Source: Escherichia phage I29. From it: 64,000 nucleotides of DNA. How positions within the stretch are numbered: the first letter of the stretch is position 1; every line of letters starts with the position of its first letter. The stretch lies in sequence record ON286975; one strand, given 5' to 3'. Made by a program: the position numbers and the translations under genes. Positions 6,625 through 56,407 of this stretch are shown piece after piece. The notes beneath the pieces are model-generated. The model was not told the origin of the DNA and did not search any database. It was given only the letters and a program-made list of their open reading frames with translations.

Positions 6625-6627
6625 TCA

Positions 6628-6656
6628 TTGACATAACCACACGGACGTGGTATTGT
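6628..6656 (+). promoter_or_regulatory. sigma70-like promoter
   Basis: TTGACA-17-TATTGT upstream of 6688 ORF. Confidence 0.5.
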
Positions 6657-6687
6657 TGCCTCATAGAATGTTCGAAAGGGTTTAACC

Positions 6688-7710: not shown

Positions 7711-8019
7711 ATGCTTAAAATTTTTATTGTTGAAGATAAAGATATCGTCCAGTTGTATGCAAATGAGAATCACAAAGGTATGATTCTGAAGAAGGCAAGC
7801 AACCTTCATGAAAACACAATTCAACCTGGCGATGTAATTAAGATCTGTGGCTATCTGATACCAGACTCCTTGATGAAAATAACCCACCACTGGGGGTCTA
7901 ATCCGTTCCTTTTTGAAAAGTATTGGGATGTTGAGTCACTTATTGCAGAAAGTGATGATGCATTTCATTACAGCATCCAACCATCTTGCAGAGTAACTAA
8001 CAGGAGGGGCTTTGAGTAG
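7711..8019 (+). CDS. hypothetical protein
   Basis: ORF downstream of promoter, AGGAGA RBS. Confidence 0.45.
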   Translation: MLKIFIVEDKDIVQLYANENHKGMILKKASNLHENTIQPGDVIKICGYLIPDSLMKITHHWGSNPFLFEKYWDVESLIAESDDAFHYSIQPSCRVTNRRGFE

Positions 8020-11867: not shown

Positions 11868-12686
11868 TTGAGCAAGAAAGAGTCCAACGACAAATATTAC
11901 ACAAACCCTGAGTATGCAGAATATCTTGTTGGTAAAGTAAAAGATAAGTATGGAAATTGTGCATACGTTGAGCCTTCTGCTGGAAGAGGTTCTTTTTCAA
12001 AACTATTTTCAGAGATACTGTCGTACGATTTAGTACCAGATCCTGAATTTGAAGGGCCAACACCGTGCATTCAGGCAAACTTCTTGGAGGTGCACCCCAA
12101 GGCAGATGTCTTCATAGGTAACCCACCATTTGGCAAGAATTCATCTTTAGCTTGCAAATTCTTCAACCATTGTGCATCATTGCTAGAGCTTGGAGGGGCC
12201 ATAGCCTTCATCTTGCCACGGACATTTGAAAAAATATTTTTTGCAAACAAATTGGACATGTCGATGCACCTTGTCTACAGCGAAAGGTGCCCTAAGAATT
12301 CGTTTTTACTTAATGGCAAACCTTATGACGTGCCGTGTGTTTTCCAAATTTGGGAGAAAAAGGCGTGTAATAGGGATCCTGTAGAGATTGGAGAGAATAA
12401 GTTATTTTCTTTTAGCACTCCAGATGACTACGACTTCTGTGTAAGACGTGTTGGGTATAATGCTGGAAAAGTATTGGGGGATGATGACCCAAAATCTGAA
12501 GAATCGACATATTTCATAAAATCTTTAGTTGACGGTGTTGACAGAGTGTTTTCTGAATGCTATTCTTCTTTTCAAGAAGAAGCAGGTAAGACTGCCGGAA
12601 TGAAGAGTATAGGCAAGAAAGAACTACAATACATTTTGGAGACCAGGTATGATCAAAAGCATAGACTTGACCAAAGAACTCACTGA
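11868..12686 (+). CDS. DNA N6-adenine methyltransferase
   Basis: FIGNPPFG motif IV; no ATG, start placed at TTG after GGAGG RBS. Confidence 0.55.
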   Translation: MSKKESNDKYYTNPEYAEYLVGKVKDKYGNCAYVEPSAGRGSFSKLFSEILSYDLVPDPEFEGPTPCIQANFLEVHPKADVFIGNPPFGKNSSLACKFFNHCASLLELGGAIAFILPRTFEKIFFANKLDMSMHLVYSERCPKNSFLLNGKPYDVPCVFQIWEKKACNRDPVEIGENKLFSFSTPDDYDFCVRRVGYNAGKVLGDDDPKSEESTYFIKSLVDGVDRVFSECYSSFQEEAGKTAGMKSIGKKELQYILETRYDQKHRLDQRTH

Positions 12687-39894: not shown

Positions 39895-40440
39895 CATACT
39901 CTACCTGTCTGATCAATTTCCCCAACCACATCCTCCATATTTTCCCTGTCTGTACTACCCCTGCCCCGCCGTGAGTCCCGTCATATCTGGCTTTCCAGCA
40001 AATATCACACCCACAAATATCATTGCCTGAAGAGGGTTTCATCTCATAATATATGCCTTACCTGAAGAGCGCTTCATACACCACGTAATTTTTTTTTTAA
40101 TTGACCCCCTCCCCGCCGCTGGAGAGGTTGGCTTTTCCCACACAGACCTGAAGAGTCAGCCAGAAATATCTGAACAGGCCCAATTCTACCACGATTTTGA
40201 CCTGACCTACAGGAGTGCTGCCAGGCGGACGAAATGGGAATCATTCTCATTCTTATAACAATTCTCAAATATCGAGGCAGTGAGGCAAATTAATAGGTGA
40301 GGCCGTTCACACAATGGCACAACATTTGCAACCTATCTTGTGGGAGTGAATGAGAATACCTATCATTGTGAGAATAGTTATCATTACGGGCAATTTAACA
40401 TAATACCCATTATGCGCACCGCTGGTGATACATACAGGGA
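39895..40440. repeat. direct repeat copy 1 (546 bp)
   Basis: Identical to 40489-41034 as far as compared; track ORFs inside the two copies translate identically. Confidence 0.85.
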
Positions 40441-40543
40441 AAATATGGAGGATGTGGTTGGGGAAATTGATCAGACAGGTAGAGTATGCATACTCTACCT
40501 GTCTGATCAATTTCCCCAACCACATCCTCCATATTTTCCCTGT
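40434..40543. repeat. 110-bp perfect palindrome at the junction of the two repeat copies
   Basis: 40441-40488 is the exact reverse complement of 40489-40536, and the match extends 7 bp further on each side; centre gtatg|catac. Confidence 0.85.
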
Positions 40544-41034
40544 CTGTACTACCCCTGCCCCGCCGTGAGTCCCGTCATATCTGGCTTTCCAGCAAATATC
40601 ACACCCACAAATATCATTGCCTGAAGAGGGTTTCATCTCATAATATATGCCTTACCTGAAGAGCGCTTCATACACCACGTAATTTTTTTTTTAATTGACC
40701 CCCTCCCCGCCGCTGGAGAGGTTGGCTTTTCCCACACAGACCTGAAGAGTCAGCCAGAAATATCTGAACAGGCCCAATTCTACCACGATTTTGACCTGAC
40801 CTACAGGAGTGCTGCCAGGCGGACGAAATGGGAATCATTCTCATTCTTATAACAATTCTCAAATATCGAGGCAGTGAGGCAAATTAATAGGTGAGGCCGT
40901 TCACACAATGGCACAACATTTGCAACCTATCTTGTGGGAGTGAATGAGAATACCTATCATTGTGAGAATAGTTATCATTACGGGCAATTTAACATAATAC
41001 CCATTATGCGCACCGCTGGTGATACATACAGGGA
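40489..41034. repeat. direct repeat copy 2 (546 bp)
   Basis: Period 594 bp relative to copy 1. Confidence 0.85.
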
Positions 41035-43747: not shown

Positions 43748-44059
43748 TTATACGGTCCGATCATTGGCCTTTGTCCAGGACCTGGCGATCCGTTTCCCGG
43801 TCACCTGGAACGGAGGCTGCATTGTGTGTAATGAGTCCAGCGTAAGGGAGGACCGTTTACGGCGTATCTTCAGGATCGCTAACGTATTGTCCATCTCACG
43901 GCCAGGTCCTGGGCGGTATGGTGTGCCTCCAGCGTTAAGGTTGATGATCTCATGTATTGAGATCCGGCGTTGTTTTGCTTCCGCATCTTTGAAGATAGCC
44001 AGCGGAGGCGCTATGCGTTGCCGATACCAATCTAAAACGGTTGGCGTAATAGCGATCAT
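43748..44059 (-). CDS. hypothetical protein
   Basis: ORF coupled to upstream stop; weak. Confidence 0.3.
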   Translation of the reverse strand: MIAITPTVLDWYRQRIAPPLAIFKDAEAKQRRISIHEIINLNAGGTPYRPGPGREMDNTLAILKIRRKRSSLTLDSLHTMQPPFQVTGKRIARSWTKANDRTV

Positions 44060-44247
44060 ATTTTACCCCCTATGTAGTCCGGTCGGTTTTTCTCTGTCAT
44101 GCGCTTTAGCAATTCTTGAATAATCCCTATTGCGGTCAATGTCTCATCTTCACGCTTTGAGTCAACATAATCAGGATCGTTTATAACTTTTGTCTGATTA
44201 TGATATCTCAATACCGCCAACACTTTTACAGCTTCATCAGTGGTCAT
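44056..44247 (-). CDS. hypothetical protein
   Basis: ORF in arm orientation. Confidence 0.35.
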   Translation of the reverse strand: MTTDEAVKVLAVLRYHNQTKVINDPDYVDSKREDETLTAIGIIQELLKRMTEKNRPDYIGGKI

Positions 44248-44392
44248 TATCGCACCTAAAACAGTAAGTTAATATATAACACCAGATCGCTGACCACTAG
44301 AACAGCACGGATCAGCACATACCTAACCATAAGGGGAAAGAGCGCCAATATTGCCACCACAATCCCAAAGGTGATGATTATCTTTCTCATGG

Positions 44393-44677
44393 TTAACGGT
44401 TTACGTAAGCTTTACCGTTTACGGTGATGGGCAAATCTTCCAGGTCTGGATCTTCCTTAAGGTCGCGAGCAAGCTCACCGCACCGGACACCCTCGAATCC
44501 GTAGTACTCTGTTGTGCCGTCCTTAAAAGTTTTAGCGGCAAGGCATAAGCGATAAGTAACCCCGATTCGATTGACGGCATGAATATCCGTTAGATTAACC
44601 TCTTTTGCCAGCTCTTTAGCCATTACAGGCGCATTAAGTCCAACAACCAGGGCAACCACTGCGATCATCTTTTTCAT
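44393..44677 (-). CDS. small secreted/periplasmic protein
   Basis: Signal peptide MKKMIAVVALVVGLNAPVMA. Confidence 0.5.
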   Translation of the reverse strand: MKKMIAVVALVVGLNAPVMAKELAKEVNLTDIHAVNRIGVTYRLCLAAKTFKDGTTEYYGFEGVRCGELARDLKEDPDLEDLPITVNGKAYVNR

Positions 44678-44768
44678 TGTGTCTATCCTCTTTCTGCTAC
44701 GTTTAAGGCGGCGGTAACCGTCTGTTTATGCCTTGTTGGTTAATTTTCGGGTATCGGTATAAATTAAA

Positions 44769-44984
44769 CTATGCTGTACGCTCAACTATAACAACGGTTT
44801 GAGGGATCTCACCTTCCACCACTATCAAGGCTTTTTTCTGCGTGATGGATATCTTTACCCGTTGCAGCGTGGCGGTGAAGTCTTTCATTTCGTCACGTGG
44901 TGTTTTAGTGCAATACCAGATCTCAGGCTTGCCGATCTGCAAGTTGCGTAAAAATTCTGTTTTGCCTGTTTTGTTAGTGATCAT
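44769..44984 (-). CDS. hypothetical protein
   Basis: ORF in arm orientation. Confidence 0.4.
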   Translation of the reverse strand: MITNKTGKTEFLRNLQIGKPEIWYCTKTPRDEMKDFTATLQRVKISITQKKALIVVEGEIPQTVVIVERTA

Positions 44985-44993
44985 TTGCCAACC

Positions 44994-45098
44994 TCACCCG
45001 ATACCGTTGGAAGATAAGATCACATTAGCCATGGTTGCAATCAGGCCAATACCCAGGGCAATAACCAGGATCACCGCATCAATTAATTTCTGTTTCAT
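44994..45098 (-). CDS. small hydrophobic peptide (34 aa)
   Basis: AGAGGAAAA RBS; single predicted transmembrane helix; below ORF-track cut-off. Confidence 0.4.
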   Translation of the reverse strand: MKQKLIDAVILVIALGIGLIATMANVILSSNGIG

Positions 45099-45187
45099 TT
45101 TGTTTTCCTCTTCTTGTTCCAGGTGGCGGACCATTCCACCGCCTTATGTATTATGCTTTGTAAGATGGTTGTTTGTTTTCAAACTAT

Positions 45188-45368
45188 TTTAACGATAATC
45201 ATCGTACGCTTTATTAACCTGGCGAATATAACATTCAAAAGCCAGATCAATAGATTTATATTCACGGATATACTCACCATAGGAAACCACATACATTTCT
45301 ATAGCTTCCTCATATGCGAGGAGAATAGAATCCAAGCCTACGATCTCAGTCTTTGCAATAATAGCCAT
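45188..45368 (-). CDS. hypothetical small protein (59 aa)
   Basis: AAGAGGATAAAA RBS; own promoter and 5'-UTR hairpin. Confidence 0.4.
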
Positions 45369-45415
45369 GATTTTTATCCTCTTTGTGGTTGGTGGGGCTT
45401 GCCCCTTTGATTTAT

Positions 45416-45443
45416 ATACTACAGTCTTATATGGTCATGTCAA
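45416..45443 (-). promoter_or_regulatory. sigma70-like promoter
   Basis: TTGACA-16-TAGTAT on the minus strand. Confidence 0.5.
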
Positions 45444-45673
45444 CTATTTTCAAAAAATTTTTCTGCTGTGATATTTTTCCCGGTAGGATTGGCTACTTTT
45501 AAAATTCTATCATGCACCGGACGCCCGAAAGAATAAGATCCGTATACAGTAAACCAATAATCGCCGTCAGGTTGTACTATTACCGCCGCATATGGTACGC
45601 CTTTTTCGTTTTTGCTGACAAAATAGATCACATTGCCATTAATAGCCTCAGCGCGTTTAATTTGTTCCATCAT
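45440..45673 (-). CDS. hypothetical protein
   Basis: ORF in arm orientation. Confidence 0.4.
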   Translation of the reverse strand: MMEQIKRAEAINGNVIYFVSKNEKGVPYAAVIVQPDGDYWFTVYGSYSFGRPVHDRILKVANPTGKNITAEKFFENS

Positions 45674-45727
45674 GATGATTTACCTCTCTTTATTTTCATA
45701 ATTGGGGCCTTTTCGGCCCCGCCAGGT

Positions 45728-46012
45728 TTATTTATTGATAGCGTGCAGCGGGAAAGGTACGCCAGGTTGATAGATAACTTTTACAACCTCATCAGGGCAA
45801 AAGAAATTGCAGAATTCACCCTGATAAGCCTCATCCTCTTTTAATTCTTCATCAACATACTGGAAAAAGTAGTCAATGCTTGGATAATCCTGACCGGGAT
45901 TATATTCAACCATGGTTAATAACAATTCTTGATCATTCCGTACGATATGCATACCAGCTTTTAAGTATTTGGCTTCCATTTCTACTACATCGCCAACGGT
46001 AACAATAGCCAT
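45728..46012 (-). CDS. hypothetical acidic protein
   Basis: ORF in arm orientation. Confidence 0.4.
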   Translation of the reverse strand: MAIVTVGDVVEMEAKYLKAGMHIVRNDQELLLTMVEYNPGQDYPSIDYFFQYVDEELKEDEAYQGEFCNFFCPDEVVKVIYQPGVPFPLHAINK

Positions 46013-46217
46013 GGTTTTAACTCCTATCTATCCGGTTAATGATTGGAGGCCTCACCGCCCCCGACACCCTTTATTATCCATATTGTAGGACTTGATGCAA
46101 GTACTTCTTTAAAAATTTTTTAAGCGCCTTGGGGGCCGCTGTAACGCCAAAATAATAAAGGCTATGCAACCGCATAGCCTTTATGTGATTATATCGCTGC
46201 AGGCCCTGCCAGGGGCC

Positions 46218-46568
46218 TTATTTTGCATTCTTTCCTATATTGCCGCTACGGTACCAGCGTTTACGGTGAAAATGGTAATAATCACCATCGGCATTAAACA
46301 TCAGATGATTTTCAATAACCAGCTTACGAAGGTGGGCCGGATCTTGTTCCATTCTTGCCAGATTCTGGCGGCTGTTACGTAAGCGGATAAATTCCATATT
46401 CAGGCCGTTGATTGCAGCATGGATGTCAAAGTAACCACCTTTGAGACGTTCACGCATGGCGTTAAGCTCAACACAATATACAGATTTCTCACAAATCAAG
46501 GTATTAGCCAGGGCGCGGACCTGGGCAAGGGGGTTAAGCTCATTAAGGTAATATAGTTTTACTTTCAT
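46218..46568 (-). CDS. hypothetical protein
   Basis: ORF in arm orientation. Confidence 0.4.
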   Translation of the reverse strand: MKVKLYYLNELNPLAQVRALANTLICEKSVYCVELNAMRERLKGGYFDIHAAINGLNMEFIRLRNSRQNLARMEQDPAHLRKLVIENHLMFNADGDYYHFHRKRWYRSGNIGKNAK

Positions 46569-46585
46569 AAAATCACCTGCTGAAA

Positions 46586-46891
46586 TTAGTTTGAGAAAAC
46601 ATCGTTCACAATAGCGATCACAATGCCGCCCACCTTGTCACGGTCAACAATGCACAAATCACCATAGATCATGTGGTAGTCTGGATGATCTTTGACGGAA
46701 TAGTCGATAAGTGTTTTCTTGTCATCCAGCTTACTAACTTCCATTCTCATAACGATATGAGAATCATCAAAGGCATTATTCCGAAAAGTCATAACCTGAC
46801 CGCCAGGGCACCCGGTGATTTCCACCTCCACGCCGTCTACGATCTGACCATCAAAGAAATAAAGATTATTAGCCTGGATAAACATGATCAT
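46586..46891 (-). CDS. hypothetical protein
   Basis: Start at MIMFIQ after AAAGGAG RBS. Confidence 0.4.
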   Translation of the reverse strand: MIMFIQANNLYFFDGQIVDGVEVEITGCPGGQVMTFRNNAFDDSHIVMRMEVSKLDDKKTLIDYSVKDHPDYHMIYGDLCIVDRDKVGGIVIAIVNDVFSN

Positions 46892-46930
46892 TACTCCTTT
46901 TTGCACTGATTATTTTAACAGGGTTTAAAT

Positions 46931-46974
46931 TTACTTTATTGATGGCCCTGGAGTCAAGGCCATCTAAAAATAAA
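46931..46974 (-). promoter_or_regulatory. conserved 44-bp promoter/palindrome element, copy 1
   Basis: Minus strand TTGACT-18-TAAATT with embedded palindrome gatggcc...ggccatc. Confidence 0.5.
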
Positions 46975-46976
46975 TT

Positions 46977-47177
46977 TTACAGGCCTACAATCTCTTTAAT
47001 TCGTTTTACTGCTGCCTCAGCGCCTTGAGGGTAAAAATTATGGTAACCAATCACGCGAGTGATACTAATCGCCGTTTGATGATCTTCATAATCACCTTTA
47101 AAGATTTCTTGACCGTCAATCAGCACGGCAATTTTTTCTTCTTTTTTGAAGTTAATAACGCGGATATTGTTGCTCAT
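46977..47177 (-). CDS. hypothetical protein
   Basis: ORF with promoter TTGCAA-18-TAATAT and 5'-UTR hairpin. Confidence 0.4.
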   Translation of the reverse strand: MSNNIRVINFKKEEKIAVLIDGQEIFKGDYEDHQTAISITRVIGYHNFYPQGAEAAVKRIKEIVGL

Positions 47178-47279
47178 TTTGTTTCTCCTTTTGGAACTTT
47201 GTCTATGCGGTGGGGAGTGTCTCCCCGTTGATTGATATTATCCATATTCTGGATCGGATTGCAACACTCAGGGAGAAAA

Positions 47280-47312
47280 AATTTGAAAAGTTAGGCCCCA
47301 GGGATCGGGGCC
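47280..47312 (-). terminator. terminator-like hairpin
   Basis: ggcccc-agggatc-ggggcc with U-rich tail on the minus strand. Confidence 0.4.
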
Positions 47313-47655
47313 GTTATCAGTTACTTACAGCGATAAAATACATCCCTACGCCTAACAATATTTCAAGGGCGATGATCTCAAGCCATACCATAACACGGCG
47401 CGCCTTATCGGTGCGGGGCTTATCCTTGGGTGTCATCGTCTCCCCCTTTCCTCCTGTTAGCAGTGACGTGGTTTGCAATGGCCCCCAGGAGTATTATCAC
47501 CACGCACATTACAAGAAAAATTATCTCTGTCGTTGTTCGATCCATTGTTATAAAATTCCTTAAGATCAGGCCTGAAAATAAAGCTTTCGTTATTGAATCC
47601 ATCCCGCCAGGCGGCTGGCTTCAAATCTTCACTAAAGGGGTTAATTAACGTGGCA

Positions 47656-48027
47656 TTATTTAAACGGCTGGTCCACATATTTTCTATTCCTCTCAAATAG
47701 GCGATCCGCCTCAGTTAAACAAATCTCATGGGCGTGATCTCTGGTTTTAGCTTCATCGAAAACCTGTTGTGCAAGGCTGCAACGTAGGGAGACTGGAAGA
47801 TCGCTGTAGTAGGCGTTGACAAATGTTTGAGCGTCGTACAGGTCTGAAAATACTTTACCCTTTCTATTATTCCCCTTGTCAACAATTGCAAGGATAACCA
47901 ATACAATAGTTGCAACCACTCCCAGGAAAATAGATATAACAAACCATAGAAAAGCGGATCTACCCATCTTGCCAGCGATCCAGGCGTTGAACAAGGCAAC
48001 TACTACAGCCAAAATAATAAATTCCAT
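47656..48027 (-). CDS. membrane protein (two predicted TM helices)
   Basis: Start at MEFIIL after AAGAGG RBS. Confidence 0.45.
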   Translation of the reverse strand: MEFIILAVVVALFNAWIAGKMGRSAFLWFVISIFLGVVATIVLVILAIVDKGNNRKGKVFSDLYDAQTFVNAYYSDLPVSLRCSLAQQVFDEAKTRDHAHEICLTEADRLFERNRKYVDQPFK

Positions 48028-48091
48028 TCTATGTACCTCTTTTGCAGTTCTGTTTAACAATAAGGCGGCAAATATGCCGCCTGTTACCTGA

Positions 48092-48472
48092 TTAAAAATT
48101 ATCGCCGTAAATCTTTCCGCTTTCTGCCCACACCACCACGCGGGGCATGTTATCCCATACGTCTTGTTTTAGATTTAACGCGTGCAATTCTTCTGTGGTG
48201 CTCATACCAGGCACGGGCTGATTGTATACTGCAAAACGACCACCTGCATAATCATAAGCTAAAGTCAAATCGCACTGAATCATTTTCTTGATCATGGCGT
48301 TAAGCATAGCGTTAGCCGCGTACTGGTCACGTTTTAAAGGCAACTCTTTGATTAGTTTGCGATAGTTTTCGATATGGTCGCACACTGTTTCACGTGGAAG
48401 ATCTTTCATATCTTCACGGAATGTAACCAGGTTAAACATAACGGTGTCAATAGCTTTAGTAGTGTTTTTCAT
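48092..48472 (-). CDS. hypothetical protein
   Basis: AAGAGGAAAA RBS. Confidence 0.45.
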   Translation of the reverse strand: MKNTTKAIDTVMFNLVTFREDMKDLPRETVCDHIENYRKLIKELPLKRDQYAANAMLNAMIKKMIQCDLTLAYDYAGGRFAVYNQPVPGMSTTEELHALNLKQDVWDNMPRVVVWAESGKIYGDNF

Positions 48473-48527
48473 GATGTTTTCCTCTTTGTTTTGTGTGGGG
48501 GCAAGTCATCTCGCCCCCTTAAGTTTT

Positions 48528-48555
48528 AATATAGCAGGTTTTTAGATTATTGCAA
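48528..48555 (-). promoter_or_regulatory. sigma70-like promoter with 5'-UTR hairpin
   Basis: TTGCAA-16-TATATT, then gggggc...gccccc hairpin at 48496-48517. Confidence 0.5.
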
Positions 48556-48563
48556 CACTTTAT

Positions 48564-49187
48564 TTATGAAAAACTCATCTCTCCATATTCATCCACATCA
48601 AACCGCCAATCATTGGCTTCAATAAGGCCGATCAAGTTTTCGGTAGTAAACTGTTCAAGATAGGCCTCCTCCAGGTCTACATAAACCTTGCGGGATAGCT
48701 CCCGTACCGTCTCGGTGATCAGCTCTTCCAGATCTTCCACTTTATTTTCTTGTTTTGCGGTCAGATCTAGCCAGGTAGTATCAATATATCCGCTTACAGT
48801 GTTTTCATGGCTGTAATGGCTGTACTTGTCGCGTTCAACACTGGCTGATAGTTCGCCATCGTGCATTGTGCCGAACAAGTGACGAATTGATCGGAACTTG
48901 GTCAGGGCCTTGACTTTACGCAAGAATTTCTCTAAGTCTACATTTTCAGCACTAATTGACGCGCCATCGCCTTGACACCAAAAGCCGGACCAATGTACAT
49001 CGGTATCTTCAAGGCCGTACTCTGGAAAAACTTGTTCTTTATAATATTCAATTACACTTTCTGCGAAAAAATCCTCTCCGCTGTGTTCTTCTCTTTCGCG
49101 GACCATTTCAATAGCTTTTTCTTTTTGTTCGTCGGTCAGCACGTCGAAAGATAAATTGCAACCTGTGGTAATGTTAACGGTAGTCAT
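48564..49187 (-). CDS. hypothetical acidic protein
   Basis: ORF in arm orientation. Confidence 0.45.
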   Translation of the reverse strand: MTTVNITTGCNLSFDVLTDEQKEKAIEMVREREEHSGEDFFAESVIEYYKEQVFPEYGLEDTDVHWSGFWCQGDGASISAENVDLEKFLRKVKALTKFRSIRHLFGTMHDGELSASVERDKYSHYSHENTVSGYIDTTWLDLTAKQENKVEDLEELITETVRELSRKVYVDLEEAYLEQFTTENLIGLIEANDWRFDVDEYGEMSFS

Positions 49188-49244
49188 GATATTTTCTCCT
49201 ATTTTCTTTGTTAGTGGCGGGAAGTTTTCTCGCCTGTGTGTTTA

Positions 49245-49272
49245 AGTATACTTATTGAGGCTTACTTGTCAA
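49245..49272 (-). promoter_or_regulatory. sigma70-like promoter with 5'-UTR hairpin
   Basis: TTGACA-16-TATACT, hairpin at 49217-49235. Confidence 0.55.
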
Positions 49273-49522
49273 CACTATTTTTTAAATTATTGTGGCGTAA
49301 AATGTTTAGAATCTCTTCAACGTCATCAACACGGCGGCAATTTTTAAACGCTACCAATTGCCCCATGATTTTAATCACTGGGCGGCCTTGCCAGTGCCCC
49401 TGGAGAAAGCGCGCCTTGACTTTATCGGTGGAACTATCACGCCACCAAATGGCCTTGTTGTTGCAGTAGTAAAAATTATTCAGGACAACATCAACTTTAT
49501 CAAAATTTTTTAATTTACGCAT
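49262..49522 (-). CDS. hypothetical protein
   Basis: ORF with promoter TTGACA-16-TATACT at ~49556-49582. Confidence 0.4.
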   Translation of the reverse strand: MRKLKNFDKVDVVLNNFYYCNNKAIWWRDSSTDKVKARFLQGHWQGRPVIKIMGQLVAFKNCRRVDDVEEILNILRHNNLKNSVDK

Positions 49523-49724
49523 GGCGTTTACTCCTTTCTCTCTTTGATGTGGTTAGTATAGCTAACCTGTTTAAGATGTCAAGCTTTAAATAAAATCACT
49601 GTCAATGATATTTTTAACGCCATAAAACGGCCCTAAGCGATGTTTTCAGGTTAAAGGGGGGCGATTGCATAGGTGGGGCCTTTTTGGCGCTTACAGGGCC
49701 AACCAGGGGCGCTATTCGTAGGAT

Positions 49725-49755
49725 AGAAATAAAAAGCCCCGCACAATGGCGGGGC
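49725..49755 (-). terminator. intrinsic terminator
   Basis: gccccgc-cattgt-gcggggc with U-tract on the minus strand. Confidence 0.55.
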
Positions 49756-49763
49756 GTTGGTTG

Positions 49764-49961
49764 TTATTTGTCTTTATGGCGGTATCGTTCTGCCTGTCGT
49801 TCACGTTCCAAAAGTAGGCCAGGCAATTTACGATCATAATGATTCCGCCAGATCTTCCCAAATCTTTTTGGCTTATTCAGTTTATTGTTGCGCTGGCGAC
49901 GTTCCGGCAACTCTTCGGAATCATGAGGGCGCTTTACAATTTTTTCGAAATTAATTTTCAT
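49764..49961 (-). CDS. hypothetical basic protein
   Basis: Start at MKINFEK assumed. Confidence 0.35.
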   Translation of the reverse strand: MKINFEKIVKRPHDSEELPERRQRNNKLNKPKRFGKIWRNHYDRKLPGLLLERERQAERYRHKDK

Positions 49962-50322
49962 AACTTCCCCCCTTACTGATCTCAATATTTGCCTGAATCG
50001 CCCGGATACGCCGTTTTATAACCTCCTGATCCTTGCAATCATATCCCCAAAAGTCTACGATTTTTGCGCCTCCAGCCTTTAGGCGGTATAGTGTTTCTTG
50101 CATCTTGTAGGCCGGGATCGGTCGCGGTGTTACCTGGTCGCCCTTCTCATTCTTGTACTTGATAATGTAGTCTTCATTGTCGTTGAATACCCAAAATGGG
50201 TATTCTGTGAGCGCGTTGCTCTCTTTTTCGTTTTTAGATTGGATCTTGTTTACAATTAAAGCCGTAGCAATAGCGCCAATAATAAAACTTGCCCCACTGA
50301 TCATGTTACTTTCTCCTTTCAT
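49951..50322 (-). CDS. hypothetical membrane-anchored protein
   Basis: N-terminal hydrophobic helix. Confidence 0.4.
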   Translation of the reverse strand: MKGESNMISGASFIIGAIATALIVNKIQSKNEKESNALTEYPFWVFNDNEDYIIKYKNEKGDQVTPRPIPAYKMQETLYRLKAGGAKIVDFWGYDCKDQEVIKRRIRAIQANIEISKGGSYEN

Positions 50323-50380
50323 TGTATTGATAAACTATCTTTATAGATGGCCCTGCTACCAGGACCACCGAAAAAACAGT

Positions 50381-50626
50381 TTATTTGACGATACCGACAA
50401 AACAGATCCCGCCTTCCCCTATATAGGCAATATCGGTAATTTTATAATTTGTCAAGATCCGCGTGTTCAGCTCATTAATAAAATCTGTCATCGCGTTGGT
50501 GTAGTTGTCTTCCGTGTCTAAGGCATAATCCCAGGTGTAAACCTTTTTACGTCCGAAGCCTTTTACCATGATACGGGCGCTTTTGGTGTTGGTAGGGGCA
50601 TAATATTTGGTGATTAGTGCTGCCAT
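50381..50626 (-). CDS. hypothetical protein
   Basis: AGGAG RBS. Confidence 0.45.
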   Translation of the reverse strand: MAALITKYYAPTNTKSARIMVKGFGRKKVYTWDYALDTEDNYTNAMTDFINELNTRILTNYKITDIAYIGEGGICFVGIVK

Positions 50627-50670
50627 GGTTTTAACTCCTATGCATTAGTTCAGTGTTAACAGTATAAAGT

Positions 50671-50714
50671 TTACTTTATTGATGGCCCTGGAGTCAAGGC
50701 CATCTAAAAATAAT
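50671..50714 (-). promoter_or_regulatory. conserved 44-bp promoter/palindrome element, copy 2
   Basis: TTGACT-18-TAAACT with the same palindrome. Confidence 0.5.
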
Positions 50715-50715
50715 C

Positions 50716-51066
50716 TTACTCGTTTTCTTCCAGCTCCGCAAGCTCTTCTTTTGCTTCTTCCAACTCTGTCTGTAATTCCTGGTATTCTTCATCGTCCTCA
50801 ATATCCAGGCTGTCGATGTAGTCGCTAAATCCGCAGCGGTAAGCGATAGGATCTAGCTCTTTGAGGATACGCGACGGAAGAAAAGAAATGTTTCCGATCA
50901 TAATTTCGCCGTAGATCTCGTCTAACCATTCATCATAGTTTTCGTCGTACTTGTCCTCGTCGATTTCAAAGTTATCGATCTTGTCTTCAAGTTCTGCAAT
51001 CTGTTTTTTCAGGGCGGCGATCTGCAGGGCTTTTTCTTCGGCGGTCATAGTGATGGAAGTATTCAT
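50716..51066 (-). CDS. hypothetical acidic coiled-coil protein
   Basis: ORF in arm orientation. Confidence 0.45.
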   Translation of the reverse strand: MNTSITMTAEEKALQIAALKKQIAELEDKIDNFEIDEDKYDENYDEWLDEIYGEIMIGNISFLPSRILKELDPIAYRCGFSDYIDSLDIEDDEEYQELQTELEEAKEELAELEENE

Positions 51067-51118
51067 AATGTTTTCTCCTTTTGGTGTTCTGGGAAGTTTT
51101 CCCGTTTATGTGCTTAGT

Positions 51119-51146
51119 ATTATACTGATTTAAGTTAGCTTGTCAA
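51119..51146 (-). promoter_or_regulatory. sigma70-like promoter with 5'-UTR hairpin
   Basis: TTGACA-16-TATAAT, gggaaaacttccc hairpin, AAAAGGAG RBS. Confidence 0.6.
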
Positions 51147-51258
51147 TTAAAAGTTTAAGAAAAATTTTGCGAAATCATTGGCGCTACTCATCAACATTTG
51201 CGCCAGGATGTAACCAATGATGCAAACGATAATAGTTACCTTTGTGTGCTGGCGTGTA
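51139..51258 (-). CDS. small hydrophobic peptide (39 aa)
   Basis: AAGGAGG RBS; one predicted TM helix; below ORF-track cut-off. Confidence 0.4.
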
Positions 51259-51295
51259 GTGCTCATCTTCAAGCCTCCTTTTTAACTGGGATTAG

Positions 51296-51340
51296 TTTAC
51301 TTTACTGATGGCCCTGGAGTCAAGGCCATCTAAAAATAAA
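51296..51340 (-). promoter_or_regulatory. conserved 44-bp promoter/palindrome element, copy 3
   Basis: TTGACT-18-TAAACT, near-identical to copies 1 and 2. Confidence 0.5.
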
Positions 51341-51341
51341 C

Positions 51342-51737
51342 TCAATAAGTTTTTAGTACTTTCCCGTCCAATCTGTCAAGCTGGATCTCGATAGCTGCAG
51401 AAAACCTATTGTAAACCACATCGCCCAAGGAGTCCAGCCAATCTATGACGTTATACACCTGCTCTTTATTCTTGCAAGTCCGGATCCGTTTCATTACGTA
51501 AGACGGATCAATATTAGCGCTCTCGTTGTTGTGGTCATGCTCCTGGCCTGCTGCATTAGTTATAGATTTTACAACCACCTGAAAAGGCTTTAAGGTGCCT
51601 TTTGCGTTCATCTCACGCGCTTTTGCGGCGCGGTTGTTATATGTTACACAACGGCGGCAAATGTTGACCAAATGCATGTCAATAATTTTTTCATCGTTTG
51701 CCAGTTCGTTCATGATGCGGCGTACGTTCTTATTCAT
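51342..51737 (-). CDS. hypothetical protein
   Basis: ORF in arm orientation. Confidence 0.45.
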   Translation of the reverse strand: MNKNVRRIMNELANDEKIIDMHLVNICRRCVTYNNRAAKAREMNAKGTLKPFQVVVKSITNAAGQEHDHNNESANIDPSYVMKRIRTCKNKEQVYNVIDWLDSLGDVVYNRFSAAIEIQLDRLDGKVLKTY

Positions 51738-51785
51738 GATCTTTTTCCTTTGTGTTGGCGGGAAACATTCCCGCCTTTTGTGATT

Positions 51786-51813
51786 AGTTTACTTGAATTT
51801 TGCAGCGTGTCAA
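51786..51813 (-). promoter_or_regulatory. sigma70-like promoter with 5'-UTR hairpin
   Basis: TTGACA-16-TAAACT, hairpin ggcggga...tcccgcc at 51751-51769. Confidence 0.55.
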
Positions 51814-51819
51814 CAATTT

Positions 51820-52218
51820 TTATTCGTGGGCGCATGTTACAATGTGCTTTTTATAGCCCAGGTGGTTAGCAAGTGCCGACAAAAACTCTTCTTCATAGAT
51901 CCAGCCGTTGGCAGTGATCCCCATAGCATTTAATGCGCTCTCAAGTGCTGCATTAGCTTTATCGTAACCGTGACCGCTCGCCTTCCCGCCAGTATAACCG
52001 TACTTATTGTTCTTGTTGTCGTGAATCCAAAAAACGCAGTATTGAGTGTTCCCGCTGGCGGCGGCATAATACCGGATCTCAGCTACTTCGTGCAAATTAT
52101 TGTCATCGTCCAGGCCCACCAGATTATAAGCCTTGTAAAATCCACGATCCCGGCGGCAGTTCTTGACATCAGAAAAAGAAAAGTCCGCATTATCAAAATT
52201 AAAGGTAGTGGTTTTCAT
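51820..52218 (-). CDS. hypothetical protein
   Basis: Promoter TTGACA-18-TACACT upstream. Confidence 0.45.
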   Translation of the reverse strand: MKTTTFNFDNADFSFSDVKNCRRDRGFYKAYNLVGLDDDNNLHEVAEIRYYAAASGNTQYCVFWIHDNKNNKYGYTGGKASGHGYDKANAALESALNAMGITANGWIYEEEFLSALANHLGYKKHIVTCAHE

Positions 52219-52282
52219 GATTTTATCCTCTTAGTGTCTTTTGTGCTTTTAGTGTATTTGGTGTCAGACTATATGTCAATAC

Positions 52283-52480
52283 TTATTTTTTATTAAACCA
52301 GTGGTTGATCTGGCCTTTTGTCAGGGCGCAACGATTAAGCTGTTGCCGGGTATAGCTCTGACCGCGACGGAATTTATAAAGGCCTTGCCCGTTGTTGATG
52401 GTTACGTCCACCTGGCAAACCATTTGATCGGTGACGGCCTGGTAAGTGTTGCGACGTACTTTAATTCCGTAGGCGTTCAT
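52283..52480 (-). CDS. hypothetical protein
   Basis: AGAGAGG RBS. Confidence 0.4.
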   Translation of the reverse strand: MNAYGIKVRRNTYQAVTDQMVCQVDVTINNGQGLYKFRRGQSYTRQQLNRCALTKGQINHWFNKK

Positions 52481-52857
52481 GATTTTTTATCCTCTCTGTT
52501 AATTAGTGTGGTGTTGTTCACCTTGCGAGGATAAGAATAACAGAACTCTCCGAGCTGTCAACCATTAGTTAGAATTATTTTTTGGGAAGAATTCTCCAGC
52601 CGCCGCCCCTGCCAGGTTAACCATCATTTTTCGTACTCTTCTTTATGTTCCAACGCTCCCGCCATAGCCTTTTCAACCAGGGTGATAACTTCAGCGGCGT
52701 TGATCGCTACATTTTCCAGGGGATTATATTACTTTTCATTTTTGTACCTCCTCTTCAATTGTTACCTGCCCTGTAGCATAGGCCTGCCAGGCTGGCCCCG
52801 CCAGGTTGCAACGGTTAGCGCATCAGGTTAGAAAAATTTTTTGAAAAGTGTTGACAG

Positions 52858-53115
52858 CGGCCCCGCCAGGTGGCACAATATACCTATCGAAAGGACGGCA
52901 GGCACCGGTGACGGGGGAGACAACCACCGGGGATGGGCGCTGCATAAAATGAGAACGGTTATCATTATCATTTAAAAATTTATGCAAAAAATCCTTGCTT
53001 TCTTTGTCCTGTGTGATACTATAATAACAAGCCGGGGCAACAGGGGCCGGGAGACAATCACCGGGGGTGCCCGTTATTCTGCAAACGAGAATGATTATCA
53101 TTCAAAATTCTAAAT
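52858..53115 (+). other. two paralogous sRNA-like elements, each with an upstream promoter-like sequence
   Basis: Two ~60-bp imperfectly matching units (gggagacaaCcaccgggg... / gggagacaaTcaccgggg...) each ending in an ...atcattatcatt... / ...attatcattc... A/T stretch; TTGACA and TTGCTT-16-TACTAT upstream; strand assignment uncertain. Confidence 0.3.
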
Positions 53116-53228
53116 GAGAACTCCTCGCATTTAATAAATTTAATTAGCGTGCTAATTACCCTCCGTAACAATTTCCTATAAAACAGTATCCCATAAAATA
53201 TTCCCATATAGAAATTTTAAAAATCCAT

Positions 53229-53395
53229 TTCTGAAAACGAAAAATCGATTTCGTTCCCAAAAATTTCAGGTCGAGCTCCGGAACGATTTCCAGAAAATCC
53301 GATTCAGAAAACGAAAAACAGATCGAGTACTGAGAAATTTATCGAGAAAAATTTTCAGAAAATTCAATCTTTGAAACGAAAAACAGATCGAGTAC
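53229..53395. repeat. three tandem ~60-bp iterons
   Basis: Consensus ttcaGAAAACGAAAAAcaGATCGAGTAC repeated three times. Confidence 0.6.
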
Positions 53396-53640
53396 CCGGA
53401 AAGCTGTACCGCAACCTCAAGATAGTGGTTAGACTATTACCATAAAAAGTCAAGGGTAAGTGGAGGAAGTTCTAGTAGAAGGATGTGAGCATGTGCGGGA
53501 AATCTGTAGTGGTGGTCTGGAATATGGTGCAAACGATAGGATGAGCGATTCAGCTTGTCGCGCCTACTCTGAAAAATCCATTTTAGTTTTCGATCCATTT
53601 TCTGATTTTCTAAGAATTTTAAAATATCTGGTCCGGTGAA

Positions 53641-53677
53641 ATATCAAAAGGAGGAAATCCATTTTAGAAATCCTCCT
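53641..53677 (-). terminator. terminator-like hairpin ending the polymerase-side operon
   Basis: aggagga...tcctcct stem with U-rich tail on the minus strand. Confidence 0.4.
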
Positions 53678-53707
53678 GATCTCTAGCAACCTGATAACTT
53701 AAAAATA

Positions 53708-54040
53708 TCAGGTGCCCAGTTTGTTCTTTCCTTTATACAACCGTAAGGGTATAGTTTTTGTAACAGTCCATCTCCCCAGCCCTTCCCAGTTCCAGTTGTA
53801 GGCATGGTACCCGGTTACGCATGCACTGCTAGAGTGGTCATAGGCATAAGAGAACGCTATACGCACCAAATGGAACCAGTCTTTCCACGGTTGTGGTCCG
53901 TAAGCTTTTCTCCAACACCGACACAAACTAAATGTCTCAAGAATAGGTAGGATAACAAATCCATACACCGCCACCAGAATAGCCAGCGCAATGATTGTCA
54001 GGAATACATACCCTGCAGTTGAAACGATGATCTCTGTCAT
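53708..54040 (-). CDS. membrane protein
   Basis: N-terminal hydrophobic helix. Confidence 0.4.
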   Translation of the reverse strand: MTEIIVSTAGYVFLTIIALAILVAVYGFVILPILETFSLCRCWRKAYGPQPWKDWFHLVRIAFSYAYDHSSSACVTGYHAYNWNWEGLGRWTVTKTIPLRLYKGKNKLGT

Positions 54041-54240
54041 TTGTCGTCCCCTTTCTTACGGATATAGATGTGAGAGCCTGCCTGTATATAAATTTCTCGA
54101 CCATCTTCTGCAAAGATATGAAATACACGATCACCTTCATACTCGATACGTGATATCTTCATAATGGTCTTTCCACCTGGGATGCGGATCTCGTCCCCCA
54201 CAGCGATGTTCCATGCAGATTTAAGCTTAAACATCTGCAC
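54037..54240 (-). CDS. hypothetical protein
   Basis: ATGA-coupled ORF. Confidence 0.4.
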   Translation of the reverse strand: MQMFKLKSAWNIAVGDEIRIPGGKTIMKISRIEYEGDRVFHIFAEDGREIYIQAGSHIYIRKKGDDK

Positions 54241-54472
54241 CCTCCTTTGGGAGCTCTAACTCTGGCATAGCCATATACGCCACAACAGGGTTGTAATCAA
54301 AGTAGAAATGACCGTTAATTATCCCAGTTTTGTGAGCATAGTCACCAGATCCTGCAAGAACAACCTCGCAAACTCCGAAATCCACCTTGCCATTCTCATC
54401 TGCCATGGCTACAATATACTTTCCTAGAGGCATGTTTTTAACGCCGTCTACAAATGTCCACCCTTTGTTCAT
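54227..54472 (-). CDS. hypothetical protein
   Basis: ORF in arm orientation. Confidence 0.4.
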   Translation of the reverse strand: MNKGWTFVDGVKNMPLGKYIVAMADENGKVDFGVCEVVLAGSGDYAHKTGIINGHFYFDYNPVVAYMAMPELELPKEGADV

Positions 54473-54492
54473 ACTTTATCTCCTGCATTCTC

Positions 54493-54825
54493 TTAAGGTA
54501 ACCAGTAAACAATCTCGCCTTTCAGCTTCATGTCGTTTCCAACATAAATTTGCCAGCCATCCATCTTAGCAGCTGCAGGCCCAAAGTCATCCGCACCCCT
54601 TACCTCTTTCCAGGTCCCGTAGTCAGGTTGCCAGATGTAAAATCCACCTTCTTTGTCCCATGCTCCATACACTACGTTTAACAAGTTTCCCATTGCAACA
54701 ATAGTGGGCCGTGGGAACAATGCATCTACAGATGCGCCACAATATTTGGTATCTTTTAAATTGCACTCCCAAAAGATGTCTGCCAGTGTGGCGGCGATAG
54801 CTTTACGTCTTTCTAATGTTACCAT
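54493..54825 (-). CDS. hypothetical protein
   Basis: ORF in arm orientation. Confidence 0.4.
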   Translation of the reverse strand: MVTLERRKAIAATLADIFWECNLKDTKYCGASVDALFPRPTIVAMGNLLNVVYGAWDKEGGFYIWQPDYGTWKEVRGADDFGPAAAKMDGWQIYVGNDMKLKGEIVYWLP

Positions 54826-54832
54826 ATCATAC

Positions 54833-55024
54833 TCACTTGTTGTTAATAAGTTCTAAAACTTTCTGTCTTACCTTATCAATATCTGTTGATTCAAAAACTG
54901 TACGATATCCCCAACTTTGCCCATAAGAATGGCTGCAATCACCATAACACCATTGCTCAATTTGATAGTATTCAAGGAACGGGTGCTGTCTAACTATGAT
55001 ACCGTCCCGGTTAAAAATTACCAT
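54833..55024 (-). CDS. hypothetical protein
   Basis: ORF in arm orientation. Confidence 0.35.
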   Translation of the reverse strand: MVIFNRDGIIVRQHPFLEYYQIEQWCYGDCSHSYGQSWGYRTVFESTDIDKVRQKVLELINNK

Positions 55025-55087
55025 AATACATCACTCTCTGTTAGTTTATGCGTATATTATACACTGCAGTTTTCAGATGTCAACCTC

Positions 55088-55339
55088 TTACAGATTGCTC
55101 CAGTACAATCGGCATTTACATTTTGGGCAATGAGGTTCTTTTATGTAATAACCGTCAGTCTTTGGAACACTTTTTGGTGCAGTTTTAAGATTGTACCTGG
55201 TAAAACATCGGAAGCAGGTTACCTCTCCCACCTGTTGATCGTTGATCCACTCACCAGAGTAAAGTTCTTTCTTGTTTCTCATAATTCTCTCCCAAATCCT
55301 CTGCAATCTTATACCAAAATCTCCAGCCAGAAAGCACAC
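55088..55339 (-). CDS. hypothetical zinc-ribbon protein
   Basis: CFRCF...CPKCKC. Confidence 0.4.
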   Translation of the reverse strand: MCFLAGDFGIRLQRIWERIMRNKKELYSGEWINDQQVGEVTCFRCFTRYNLKTAPKSVPKTDGYYIKEPHCPKCKCRLYWSNL

Positions 55340-55533
55340 GGGAACACTTTGAGGATTGAATCTTTACTTGGCTCGGAAGTTCTTTTTCCGTATGGTAGGT
55401 AGAAATACCCTCCTGCAGATTCGAATATAGCTCCTTCGGTTGTATCTACCACAGCAAGAATTAAGATTTTAGTCTCCACAGTGCTCTCCTCTCTTAGTTG
55501 TCGTGGAAACTATATCACCTCAGAAGATGGTCG

Positions 55534-55990
55534 TCAACACTTTTTGTACTCCACCACGACAATATCTATGTCGAAAGTGGCAAGGTTAATAACGTCCTCT
55601 ACGTGTTCCCACTTCAAACCGCCTATGCCGCACCCGATCTTAGGTATGTAGAATGGTAAAGTCGATCCGCTGAATACTTCATTGACTAGCTCAAAGCCTT
55701 TCAGGATTGAGAAATACTCAGCATTAGGTCCTGGGTAGAACTGGGTATATAGATTGATTCCGTAGACAATACCTATCGGAGATAAGTGCTCCCATCGGGA
55801 GAACGCACCCAGTTTACTTAGGCAACCGTATCTAGTCTCTTTGTCGGCTGACAGTGCTTGAGGAAACTCACGGGCAATCTGTTTTGCTATACCCTTGCCC
55901 ATTGTGTGGAAGCAGTTACAACCGTGGATCAGGTGACCAGCACCGCTCTTAAAAAGGGAGATTAAATCTCCCTCTACAGTATCAATAATC
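55534..55990 (-). CDS. macro-domain protein (ADP-ribose binding/processing)
   Basis: IIDTVEGDL, HGCNCFHTMGKGIAKQI, IPKIGCGIGG follow the macro-domain pattern; GTG start assumed after upstream gene. Confidence 0.6.
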
Positions 55991-56407
55991 ACGGTAAGCC
56001 AGCTCCTCTTCCGCAATTTCAAAAAACTCAGTCCAGCACTGTGGCATATTGGAGTTACCGAAGTGGCTTTCATAGTAAAGGTTCTTACCGCTAGGAAGGT
56101 AGAAATCTGTTACCTCATAAAATCCACAATCGTCGCACTCACCTTCTTCAAACTTGGCCTTAACCTTAATACCGAGGAAGGTGAAAAGTTTATGGACATC
56201 TTCAGTTTCGAACTCCCAGGGAATGTTGTTTTCCGCATCGGTGTAGAACTGGATCAGCAGACCATTGTCCAGTTTACCAAAATACTCTGTGAAGTAACTT
56301 CCTTCCCAGAAATCTTTATGACAAATAATATCCATGCGTTTGCCCATAATAATGGTGTGAGCGTTTTGGGCATCGTCACGAATCAGTTTTGGCATTTCAT
56401 AGATCAT
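55982..56407 (-). CDS. hypothetical protein
   Basis: ORF in arm orientation. Confidence 0.4.
   Translation of the reverse strand: MIYEMPKLIRDDAQNAHTIIMGKRMDIICHKDFWEGSYFTEYFGKLDNGLLIQFYTDAENNIPWEFETEDVHKLFTFLGIKVKAKFEEGECDDCGFYEVTDFYLPSGKNLYYESHFGNSNMPQCWTEFFEIAEEELAYRDY

Follow-up and report, generated by a model that had tools for sequence, protein, structure and literature searches.

What is the role of a short sequence that recurs almost unchanged between the early genes of a large virulent coliphage? The question is raised by a stretch of 64,000 nucleotides from Escherichia phage I29 (sequence record ON286975), hereafter the window, which represents an rV5-like myovirus of the genus Vequintavirus and, in the 8 kb that were compared, shares 99.9% identity with Shigella phage CM1. 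A first-pass annotation had pointed to a 44-bp element occurring three times in the last third of the window, each time directly after a stop codon, and had regarded it as a promoter combined with a palindrome, suggesting a shared operator for a repressor or activator. The analysis described here keeps the repeat and the palindrome, and leads to a different interpretation of both: the conserved feature would be a sense-strand RNA stem-loop of early polycistronic transcripts, which, with moderate confidence, we regard as acting post-transcriptionally in processing or stability.

A two-tier hairpin on the sense strand

The coding strand in this region is the minus strand. A search of the window with the 44-mer, allowing up to three mismatches, gives exactly three matches, as had been claimed, at 46930-46973 and 50670-50713 (0 mismatches) and at 51296-51339 (1 mismatch, T to C, in 'tttactttaCtg'), with 0.00 matches expected by chance (100 shuffles). 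The start previously given as 51296 is exact, and those given as 46931 and 50671 are each one base too high. The likeness among the three copies reaches about 62 nt. Each 44-mer lies 2-3 nt past a minus-strand stop codon, and the following start codons are found 31-44 nt past the element, so its location behind one gene and ahead of the next had been correctly described. Alignment of the copies and a wider search, both proposed in that annotation as checks, recovered these three copies (A1, A2 and A3, together family A) and revealed a fourth one that had been overlooked: a diverged copy, 71% identical, with its 44-mer equivalent at 50336-50379 (family B). A covariance model built on every variant detects the four copies in the window with 73-83 bits (72.6 bits for copy B); neither the window nor the 76 kb of the CM1 genome outside it yields a further member. 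All four begin 0-3 nt past a stop codon, a place that is constant at the four sites (Table 1).

The inverted repeat GATGGCC/GGCCATC over the -35 hexamer, a perfect 7-bp dyad in three copies, is real and longer than had been stated: the inner stem, GATGGCCTTG/CAGGGCCATC, comprises 10 pairs with one G.T, and the flanking TTTATTTTT/AAAGTAAA pair too. Each of the four copies folds, on the sense strand, into a single long hairpin with two tiers. Its lower stem is made of 11-13 AU-rich pairs (UUUAUUUUU with AAAGUAAA), with almost no G-C pairs and with the stop codon included, and is followed in all four copies by an internal loop of 2x3 nt directly beneath a GC-rich upper stem of 10 bp (GAUGGCCUUG with CAGGGCCAUC in family A; GGUGGUCCUG with CAGGGCCAUC in family B, with two G.U pairs), which carries a tetraloop on top. 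The pair adjoining the internal loop is G-C, the next pairs are A-U or G.U, and then U-A. Fold energies of the four sense-strand copies range from -23.5 to -28.7 kcal/mol (z-scores between -4.5 and -6.2), whereas the antisense strand folds clearly less well, and DNA parameters show the same bias. A search of Rfam over positions 44000-56000 (E<=1) gave no family at the elements.

Conservation of this structure was examined in 61 copies from about 20 phages and metagenomic contigs, corresponding to 42 distinct sequences, one truncated copy being set aside. When the two-helix structure is imposed on the alignment of the 42 distinct copies, 95.8% of the cells pair, as compared with 36-56% after sliding the partners by 1-3 columns. 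In four lower-stem pairs both partners have changed, and one of these pairs runs through C-G, U.G and U-A within family B; the covariation score was matched by none of 500 shuffles. The pattern is also strand-specific, with 110 G.U cells on the sense strand as against 10 A.C cells, and pairing of 95.8% on the sense strand versus 84.5% on the antisense strand. The upper-stem differences between families A and B all go through G.U. Among orthologous copies, nucleotide diversity amounts to 0.046 in the stems, 0.023 in the internal loop and 0.217 in the tetraloop, with 0.145 in the downstream non-coding spacer and 0.085 in the upstream coding sequence, so that the stems are three times less diverse than the adjoining non-coding spacer. 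Variation within the element is highest in the tetraloop, in which positions 4-6 of the -35 hexamer lie and whose first one or two bases are invariant within each family.

The structure, its strand and its conservation are demonstrated by these comparisons, and the pattern of substitutions, being that predicted for a structured sense single strand, in practice RNA, favours such a molecule. An RNA element is favoured over a DNA operator because the stems pair and covary, the G.U cells are biased to one strand, the loop varies, and copy B keeps the hairpin without a promoter.

Table 1. Coordinates of the hairpins and of the other features discussed in the text; all lie on the minus strand
Feature	Position in window	Strand	Characteristics	Location
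A1 hairpin	46927..46977	-	46967-46977 pairs with 46927-46937 in the lower stem; 46941-46964 contains the upper stem; tetraloop ACUC; RNA fold -25.2 kcal/mol, z -4.46	5′ end shares the last base of stop TAA (46977-46979) of the 66-aa gene
A2 hairpin	50667..50717	-	Same fold as A1; z -5.57	Directly past stop TAA (50716-50718) of the 116-aa gene; 81-aa gene follows
A3 hairpin	51294..51342	-	Same fold; internal loop AGU, not AAU; z -5.39	Past stop TGA (51342-51344) of the 131-aa gene; 41-aa open reading frame (ORF) follows
Copy B hairpin	50330..50384	-	13-bp lower stem, 2x3 internal loop, 10-bp upper stem, loop GUAG; -28.7 kcal/mol, z -6.18	Takes in stop TAA (50381-50383) of the 81-aa gene
Sigma70-like match in A1	46928..46957	-	TTGACT 46957-46952, 18-nt spacer, TAAATT 46933-46928; 9/12	
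Sigma70-like matches in A2, A3	50697-50668; 51323-51294 (TAAACT)	-	Promoter scan 9/12	
Promoter TTGACA-16-TAAACT with leader hairpin	51786..51813	-	10/12	Upstream of the 131-aa gene preceding A3
Consensus early promoter TTGACA-16-TATAAT (rV5 P192)	51119..51146	-		Drives the operon with A2 and B
Canonical intrinsic terminator	49736..49755	-	GCCCCGCCATTGTGCGGGGC then TTTTTATTT	Ends the operon with A2 and B
Terminator-like hairpin with U-rich tail	46155..46184	-		Ends the unit with A1
626-bp repeat unit	50714..51339	-	Absent from at least 5 related phages	A3 through the base before A2

Promoter match and operon context

The promoter that had been read in the three copies, TTGACT-18-TAAA(C/T)T on the coding strand, is recovered as a match by a promoter scan, with 9 of 12 consensus positions. 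Matches of this quality are common by chance in the region (44 found vs 28 expected), and its clear early promoters score 10-12/12; the family A match is weak, promoter activity being possible. The stretch upstream of the match is T-rich, and TAAACT is also the -10 hexamer of the 10/12 promoter at 51813. Copy B shows CUGGUA in place of TTGACT, and no match of 9/12 or more. Database labels conflict, the element being a 'promoter' in the record of phage Gotham (PhagePromoter, at orthologous sites) and a 'terminator' in that of Murica, both of them predictions, and it is absent from the table of rV5 promoters and terminators (Table S4, PMC3606486) and from the rV5 record.

Natural variants do not decide the question of the promoter. 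A1 of phage C7 has lost the -10 hexamer and the 3′ arm of the lower stem and keeps the upper stem, WM shows a 19-nt spacer, and HMD-6 carries two indels that restore 18 nt. Gotham A3 was tried as an 'empty site' and rejected as such, since it is a copy with a 5-nt deletion in the stem that cuts the spacer to 13; damaging both the stem and the promoter spacing, this deletion does not discriminate either. Apart from the element itself, an extended -10-like motif, TGTTAAAAT, is found at 46912-46920 (minus strand), 10 nt downstream of A1. The phages JES2013, navn and C7 carry TGGTAAAAT at this place, the -10 form of several promoters listed for rV5, and the motif could be the real promoter of the 99-aa gene.

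From the operon layout we infer that all four copies are transcribed. One unit consists of the promoter at 51813, a leader hairpin, the 131-aa gene, A3 and the 41-aa ORF. Another one starts at the promoter at 51146 and continues with a leader hairpin, the 116-aa gene, A2, the 81-aa gene, B and the genes for 117 and 65 aa, up to the terminator at 49755. The last unit follows a terminator-like hairpin at 47312 and comprises a promoter-like site at 47264, a leader hairpin, the 66-aa gene, A1, the genes for 99 and 116 aa, and the terminator at 46184. Every A copy is therefore seated after the first gene behind a promoter, and B lies inside an operon. No promoter is present between B and the terminator at 49755 for the genes that follow, so that the hairpin must be transcribed through and cannot act as an efficient terminator.

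The ten neighbouring proteins, all of them small, have no known function, with a single exception that resembles T7 gp1.1, and searches of them against Pfam and PHROGs gave no DNA-binding domain, no helix-turn-helix and no regulator. The exception is the 65-aa protein (49764-49961, minus strand), which matches Pfam PF08200 'Bacteriophage 1.1 protein' with an E-value of 2.6e-11, in agreement with the annotators of Murica; a T7 gp1.1-like gene is thus present in an rV5-like phage.

The clear early promoters of the region (TTGACA-16/17-TATAAT-like; 45369-52281, minus strand) show an arrangement of their own, in which the promoter is followed by a short GC-rich leader hairpin without a U-tract and then by a ribosome-binding site of the ACAAAGAGG type. 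These units lie in the gaps 51818->51737, 51146->51066, 49261->49188, 48563->48473, 47316->47178, 45727->45674 and 45439->45369, and examples of the hairpins are GGCGGGAATGTTTCCCGCC, GGGGGCGAGATGACTTGCCCCC and GGGGCAAGCCCC. Such a unit of promoter, hairpin and ribosome-binding site resembles the promoter(early) stem-loops (PeSLs) of other phages, and may play the role of a stabiliser of the mRNA 5′ end.

Distribution and recombination between copies

The element occurs in 120 GenBank phage records, at about three places in each of them, and all of these phages are Vequintaviruses except KKE7M. Family B is found exactly once per record in 117 records, and there are four members per genome. A scan of IMG/VR with a shared 17-mer yielded 15 loci, three of which, from two rV5-like contigs, are real relatives and the rest chance matches, and scans of viral and metagenome sequences with the neighbouring 81-aa protein found close relatives only. 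No match at E<=1 was obtained in 5,426 complete genomes of E. coli, and the element is therefore neither a host repeat nor a prophage sequence. The literature search found no publication giving its sequence; the element is undescribed in the searchable literature, and it is of a kind already known from other phages. On a separate matter, 17-21 GenBank records of 'Campylobacter phages' (MG0656xx; C7, D1, C14 and others) are 90-100% identical to Vequintaviruses of E. coli in this region, and at least one of them (C7) is marked UNVERIFIED, the assignment of these records to a Campylobacter host being doubtful.

Comparison of related genomes demonstrates recombination between the copies. The 626-bp unit from A3 to A2 contains the 41-aa ORF, the strong promoter at 51146-51119, its leader hairpin and the 116-aa gene, and the phages without it carry one chimeric A3/A2 element instead. 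Such a chimera, with the upstream flank of A3 and the downstream flank of A2, is seen in ECP32 and in one IMG/VR contig, both of which are without window positions 51293-50728 and in both of which the BLAST segments overlap exactly in the element. ECP26, phiWec189, ime and magaca show the chimeric junction too, in contiguous form, and their junction flanks are 94.5-100% identical to those of ECP32. Moreover, the loop alleles ACUU, ACGC and ACAC are found at different paralogous positions in different phages, which indicates either exchange between copies or recurrent mutation.

Exchange at a larger distance is suggested by KKE7M (PQ356295, a Justusliebigvirus of the Stephanstirmvirinae), which is 89.9% identical to window positions 51147-50664 over the strong promoter, the leader hairpin, the 116-aa gene and element A. 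This shared block begins at the promoter at 51146-51119 and ends 6 nt beyond the element. KKE7M has further small early-gene blocks in common with the window, with identities of 74-93% and unrelated DNA between them (5001-5334, 6518-6711, 7825-8298 and 12361-12640 of the KKE7M locus), a distribution that indicates a cassette-wise exchange between phage subfamilies. The covariance model finds no further members in the KKE7M locus, and a 22-bit match at 4215-4264 of this locus was rejected, as it has no hairpin and resembles the element in part of its sequence only.

The elements are not the sole breakpoints of the region. Phage rV5_ev146 (LR699804) is without 51744->51254 and 49816->43654 (about 6.2 kb of early orphan ORFs, or ORFans), and has thereby lost A3 and A1. 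Its 4.4-kb shortfall was considered as a deletion between A3 and A1, and this was rejected, as both junctions lie at other short homologies, of 13-19 nt, one of them in the ACAAAGG leader motif. The loss of A3 and A1 also indicates that two of the copies are dispensable.

Other repeats and structured segments of the window stand apart from this family. The 12-mer CCTGGCGGGGCC occurs four times (one copy with a mismatch; 0.05 expected), at 45715-45726, 46202-46213, 52794-52805 and 52859-52870, all on the minus strand and each at the foot of an intergenic GC-rich hairpin, and looks like a second small repeat family. The 1227 bp at 52480-53706, without any annotated gene in the CM1 record, contain GC-rich structured segments and three direct repeats of 57 nt (53207-53402); a 'non-coding' box on the genome map of rV5 may correspond to this region. 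Finally, an exact direct repeat of 300 nt is found at 39895-40194 and 40489-40788, with a spacing of 594 nt.

Possible roles and known counterparts

The place of the hairpin offers some hints about its potential role, which, as with promoter activity, we infer from the data above. Located in an early polycistronic RNA, from the upstream gene's stop codon onwards, the hairpin would be subject to RNase III-type processing or act as an exonuclease barrier, in either case leaving a protective structure at the 3′ end of the upstream message, and the expression of the first gene would thereby be set apart from that of the genes behind. A stem at the stop codon could also hinder ribosomes, as the repetitive extragenic palindromic (REP) elements of bacteria do, and the weak sigma70-like match of the A copies may restart transcription. 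In addition, the A copies serve as homologous recombination sites, deleting or moving small cassettes, because they are identical repeats of 44-62 bp.

Several observations weigh against such an RNA role. Few independent substitution events lie behind the covariation, most of the two-sided changes of a pair separate the two families or a small number of lineages, and the kinship of the sequences inflates the shuffle statistic; neither weakness, of small numbers or of kinship, affects the slid-partner control and the strand bias. The 32 variants of family A all carry TTGAC, the A and C of which lie in the loop, as expected if the -35 hexamer matters. A1 and A3 are lost or damaged in viable phages (rV5_ev146, Gotham and C7), and the role is consequently not an essential one. 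The function would be read from shape and position alone, and the literature search found no transcript, cleavage or half-life data for Vequintavirus. Furthermore, the G-C pair next to the internal loop occupies the position of a catalytic antideterminant in the minimal T7 substrate, so that RNase III might bind to the hairpin and leave it uncut, or might have no action on it; a plain exonuclease barrier or attenuator, as shown for REP hairpins, fits as well.

Alternatively, the element could be recognized by a protein, either as DNA or as RNA. The operator that had been suggested would make it a sigma70 promoter whose -35 hexamer is overlapped by a palindromic site for a dimeric regulator, of the phage or of the host, coordinating three early genes. 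The 7-bp dyad lies over this hexamer three times, three identical sites would suit a common regulator, and the claim that conservation goes beyond the needs of a promoter is borne out, since the spacer is kept as well. We nevertheless regard an operator as very improbable, since the substitutions are strand-asymmetric and compensatory and recognition of double-stranded DNA predicts neither of these features; a dyad symmetry without strand bias is not what the G.U and A.C counts show. Moreover, the AU-rich flanks pair and covary, the loop varies freely, the centre of the dyad included, and the half-sites of family B, where the promoter is missing, differ at 2 of 7 positions, both of them wobble-compatible. 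That the ten flanking proteins contain no DNA-binding domain is weak negative evidence, confined to the proteins next to the elements. A phage RNA-binding protein, such as a regulator of translation or an antiterminator of the nut/boxB or put type, would replace the nuclease in recognizing the hairpin, and would agree with the conservation of stems and internal loop at the RNA level, with the presence of terminators in the early operons, and with the invariant first loop base or bases of each family. However, the loops differ between families (ACUC vs GUAG) and vary within them, there is no candidate among the neighbouring proteins and no match in Rfam, and some phages dispense with copies, all of which leaves this possibility a slim one.

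The other explanations start from the plasticity of the region. The element could be a PeSL-type insulator, in which the hairpin terminates or attenuates upstream transcription, the embedded sigma70 promoter restarts it, and each gene becomes a unit of its own within a cassette shuffled by recombination. In line with this, the promoter match is present, the labels of Gotham and Murica cover both activities, the deletion junctions lie in the element, TAAACT serves as the -10 of the promoter at 51813, and the element of KKE7M has a leader hairpin and a ribosome-binding site behind it, spaced in the way usual for the clear promoters of the region. On the other hand, neither stem is followed by a U-tract, and the terminator scan passes over the elements and finds canonical terminators nearby; copy B combines the same hairpin with the lack of a promoter, and the two genes beyond it need read-through; the match reaches only 9/12, with an 18-nt spacer, and is missing from the curated rV5 promoter list; and there are four copies per genome as against dozens of PeSLs. 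An insulator is for these reasons unlikely. Somewhat more speculative, and to be held only tentatively, is a mobile cassette format of large virulent coliphages, composed of a strong promoter, a leader hairpin, one small ORFan and the two-tier hairpin at the 3′ end, which would be exchanged between subfamilies at its conserved ends, the hairpin doubling as a signal for the dosage of the cassette gene through RNase III or ribosome stalling, or alternatively being the recognition site of a phage RNA-binding factor; the candidate cassette (51147-50664) occurs with 90% identity in KKE7M, and at least 5 Vequintaviruses are without it. It is improbable, finally, that the element has no dedicated function and is a palindromic repeat spread by duplication and homogenised by gene conversion, with recombination as its sole consequence. 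The loop alleles shared by paralogous sites, the deletions between copies, the copies lost or damaged in viable phages, and a highly plastic gene block with other deletions at unrelated microhomologies would all be expected in that case. However, copy B keeps its stems by compensatory and wobble changes while the loop drifts, and, as the single copy of its family, it cannot be homogenised by conversion; the low diversity of the stems relative to the spacer, and the constant position at four stop codons, point in the same direction.

The rV5-like phages are widely used in biocontrol and phage therapy, and their early region is an uncharacterised run of small genes. As a conserved RNA element behind stop codons, in three of four cases that of the first gene past a promoter, the hairpin would provide a handle on the relative expression of early genes, and it offers a concrete test of a T7-like use of the host RNase III. 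The repeats also account for part of the variation in gene content among therapeutic phages that are 90-95% identical, through the recurrent loss of the 626-bp cassette, and current GenBank records label one and the same sequence as both 'promoter' and 'terminator'.

Four classes of known elements were considered for comparison, and membership in none of them (T7 RNase III signals, PeSLs, REPs or intrinsic terminators) can be claimed, because copy number and a strong promoter are lacking for a PeSL, a family in the host for a REP, and a U-tract for a terminator, and because the likeness to RNase III signals is one of structure only. As in an intrinsic terminator, a GC-rich hairpin lies past the stop codon. 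A canonical terminator was rejected, as on both strands the U-run lies upstream and the downstream sequence is A-rich, with AAUAAAGU past the upper stem and an A/C-rich tail past the lower stem, and as the terminator scan finds nearby terminators only. With regard to a mimic of a CRISPR repeat, to our knowledge there is no resemblance to the I-E and I-F repeats of E. coli.

REP hairpins located 15 nt or less from a stop codon stall ribosomes, stabilise the upstream mRNA and protect it from exonucleases (PMC12306157). Like them, the element described here is an imperfect palindrome with wobble pairs, placed between genes of one operon at no more than 15 nt from a stop codon, and a substrate for recombination. 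Unlike them, it resides in a phage and not in a chromosome (0 matches in the E. coli genomes searched), in four copies instead of hundreds, without the context of a REP-associated tyrosine transposase (RAYT), and is about 51 nt long and two-tiered. In T4-type phages, a PeSL consists of an early sigma70 promoter and a stem-loop that lies between the hexamers or over them; PeSLs are located between small ORFans and have been shown to terminate, to promote and to recombine (PMC2839356; PMC4122927). Here too, a stem-loop overlaps a promoter match, with the upper stem spanning the -35 hexamer and part of the spacer, the upstream stretch is AT-rich, small early ORFans surround the element in a plastic region, and recombination from copy to copy deletes the cassette between. 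The differences are a different phage group, only four copies, a promoter match that is weak and absent from copy B, the lack of a U-tract, a second AU-rich tier, and the location of the strong promoters of the region elsewhere, with leader hairpins of their own.

Substrates of the E. coli RNase III have about two helical turns, with 11 bp from the cleavage site to the tetraloop, and internal loops in them lead to single-strand cleavage and a protective 3′ hairpin (PMC1540722; PMC3867540). The 21-23 bp of the element (10 in the upper and 11-13 in the lower stem) form two coaxial helices of that length, and the 2x3 internal loop under the 10-bp upper stem is suitably placed; with respect to the proximal and distal boxes of RNase III substrates, the G-C by the loop would be unfavourable and the next pairs permissive. 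Four early intergenic gaps of T7, folded in the same way, show the same two-tier build from the stop codon, with promoters annotated in three of the four. These gaps are reported by Dunn & Studier (1983) to contain four of the five RNase III signals, whose positions are not annotated in the T7 record used. Like R0.3, R0.5, R1, R1.1 and R1.3 of T7, the element is intercistronic in the early polycistronic RNA of a virulent coliphage and occurs in several copies per genome, and the likeness extends to the AU-rich lower stem, the 3′ internal loop of UAU/AAU type, the GC-rich upper stem of 9-13 bp with G.U, and the loop of 3-5 nt. There is, in contrast, no sequence homology, the duplex of T7 R1 resembling the inner stem only 'inside-out', with the arms swapped relative to the loop, and the G-C next to the internal loop is a further difference. 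No general principle is changed by these findings, as T7, T4-type phages and bacterial REPs already offer examples of intercistronic hairpins and of promoter-hairpin cassettes. The closest counterparts are bacterial REP elements by the stop-codon position and the wobble-containing palindrome, PeSL cassettes by the promoter, stem-loop, ORFan context and recombination, and, by architecture and position, the early RNase III signals of T7.

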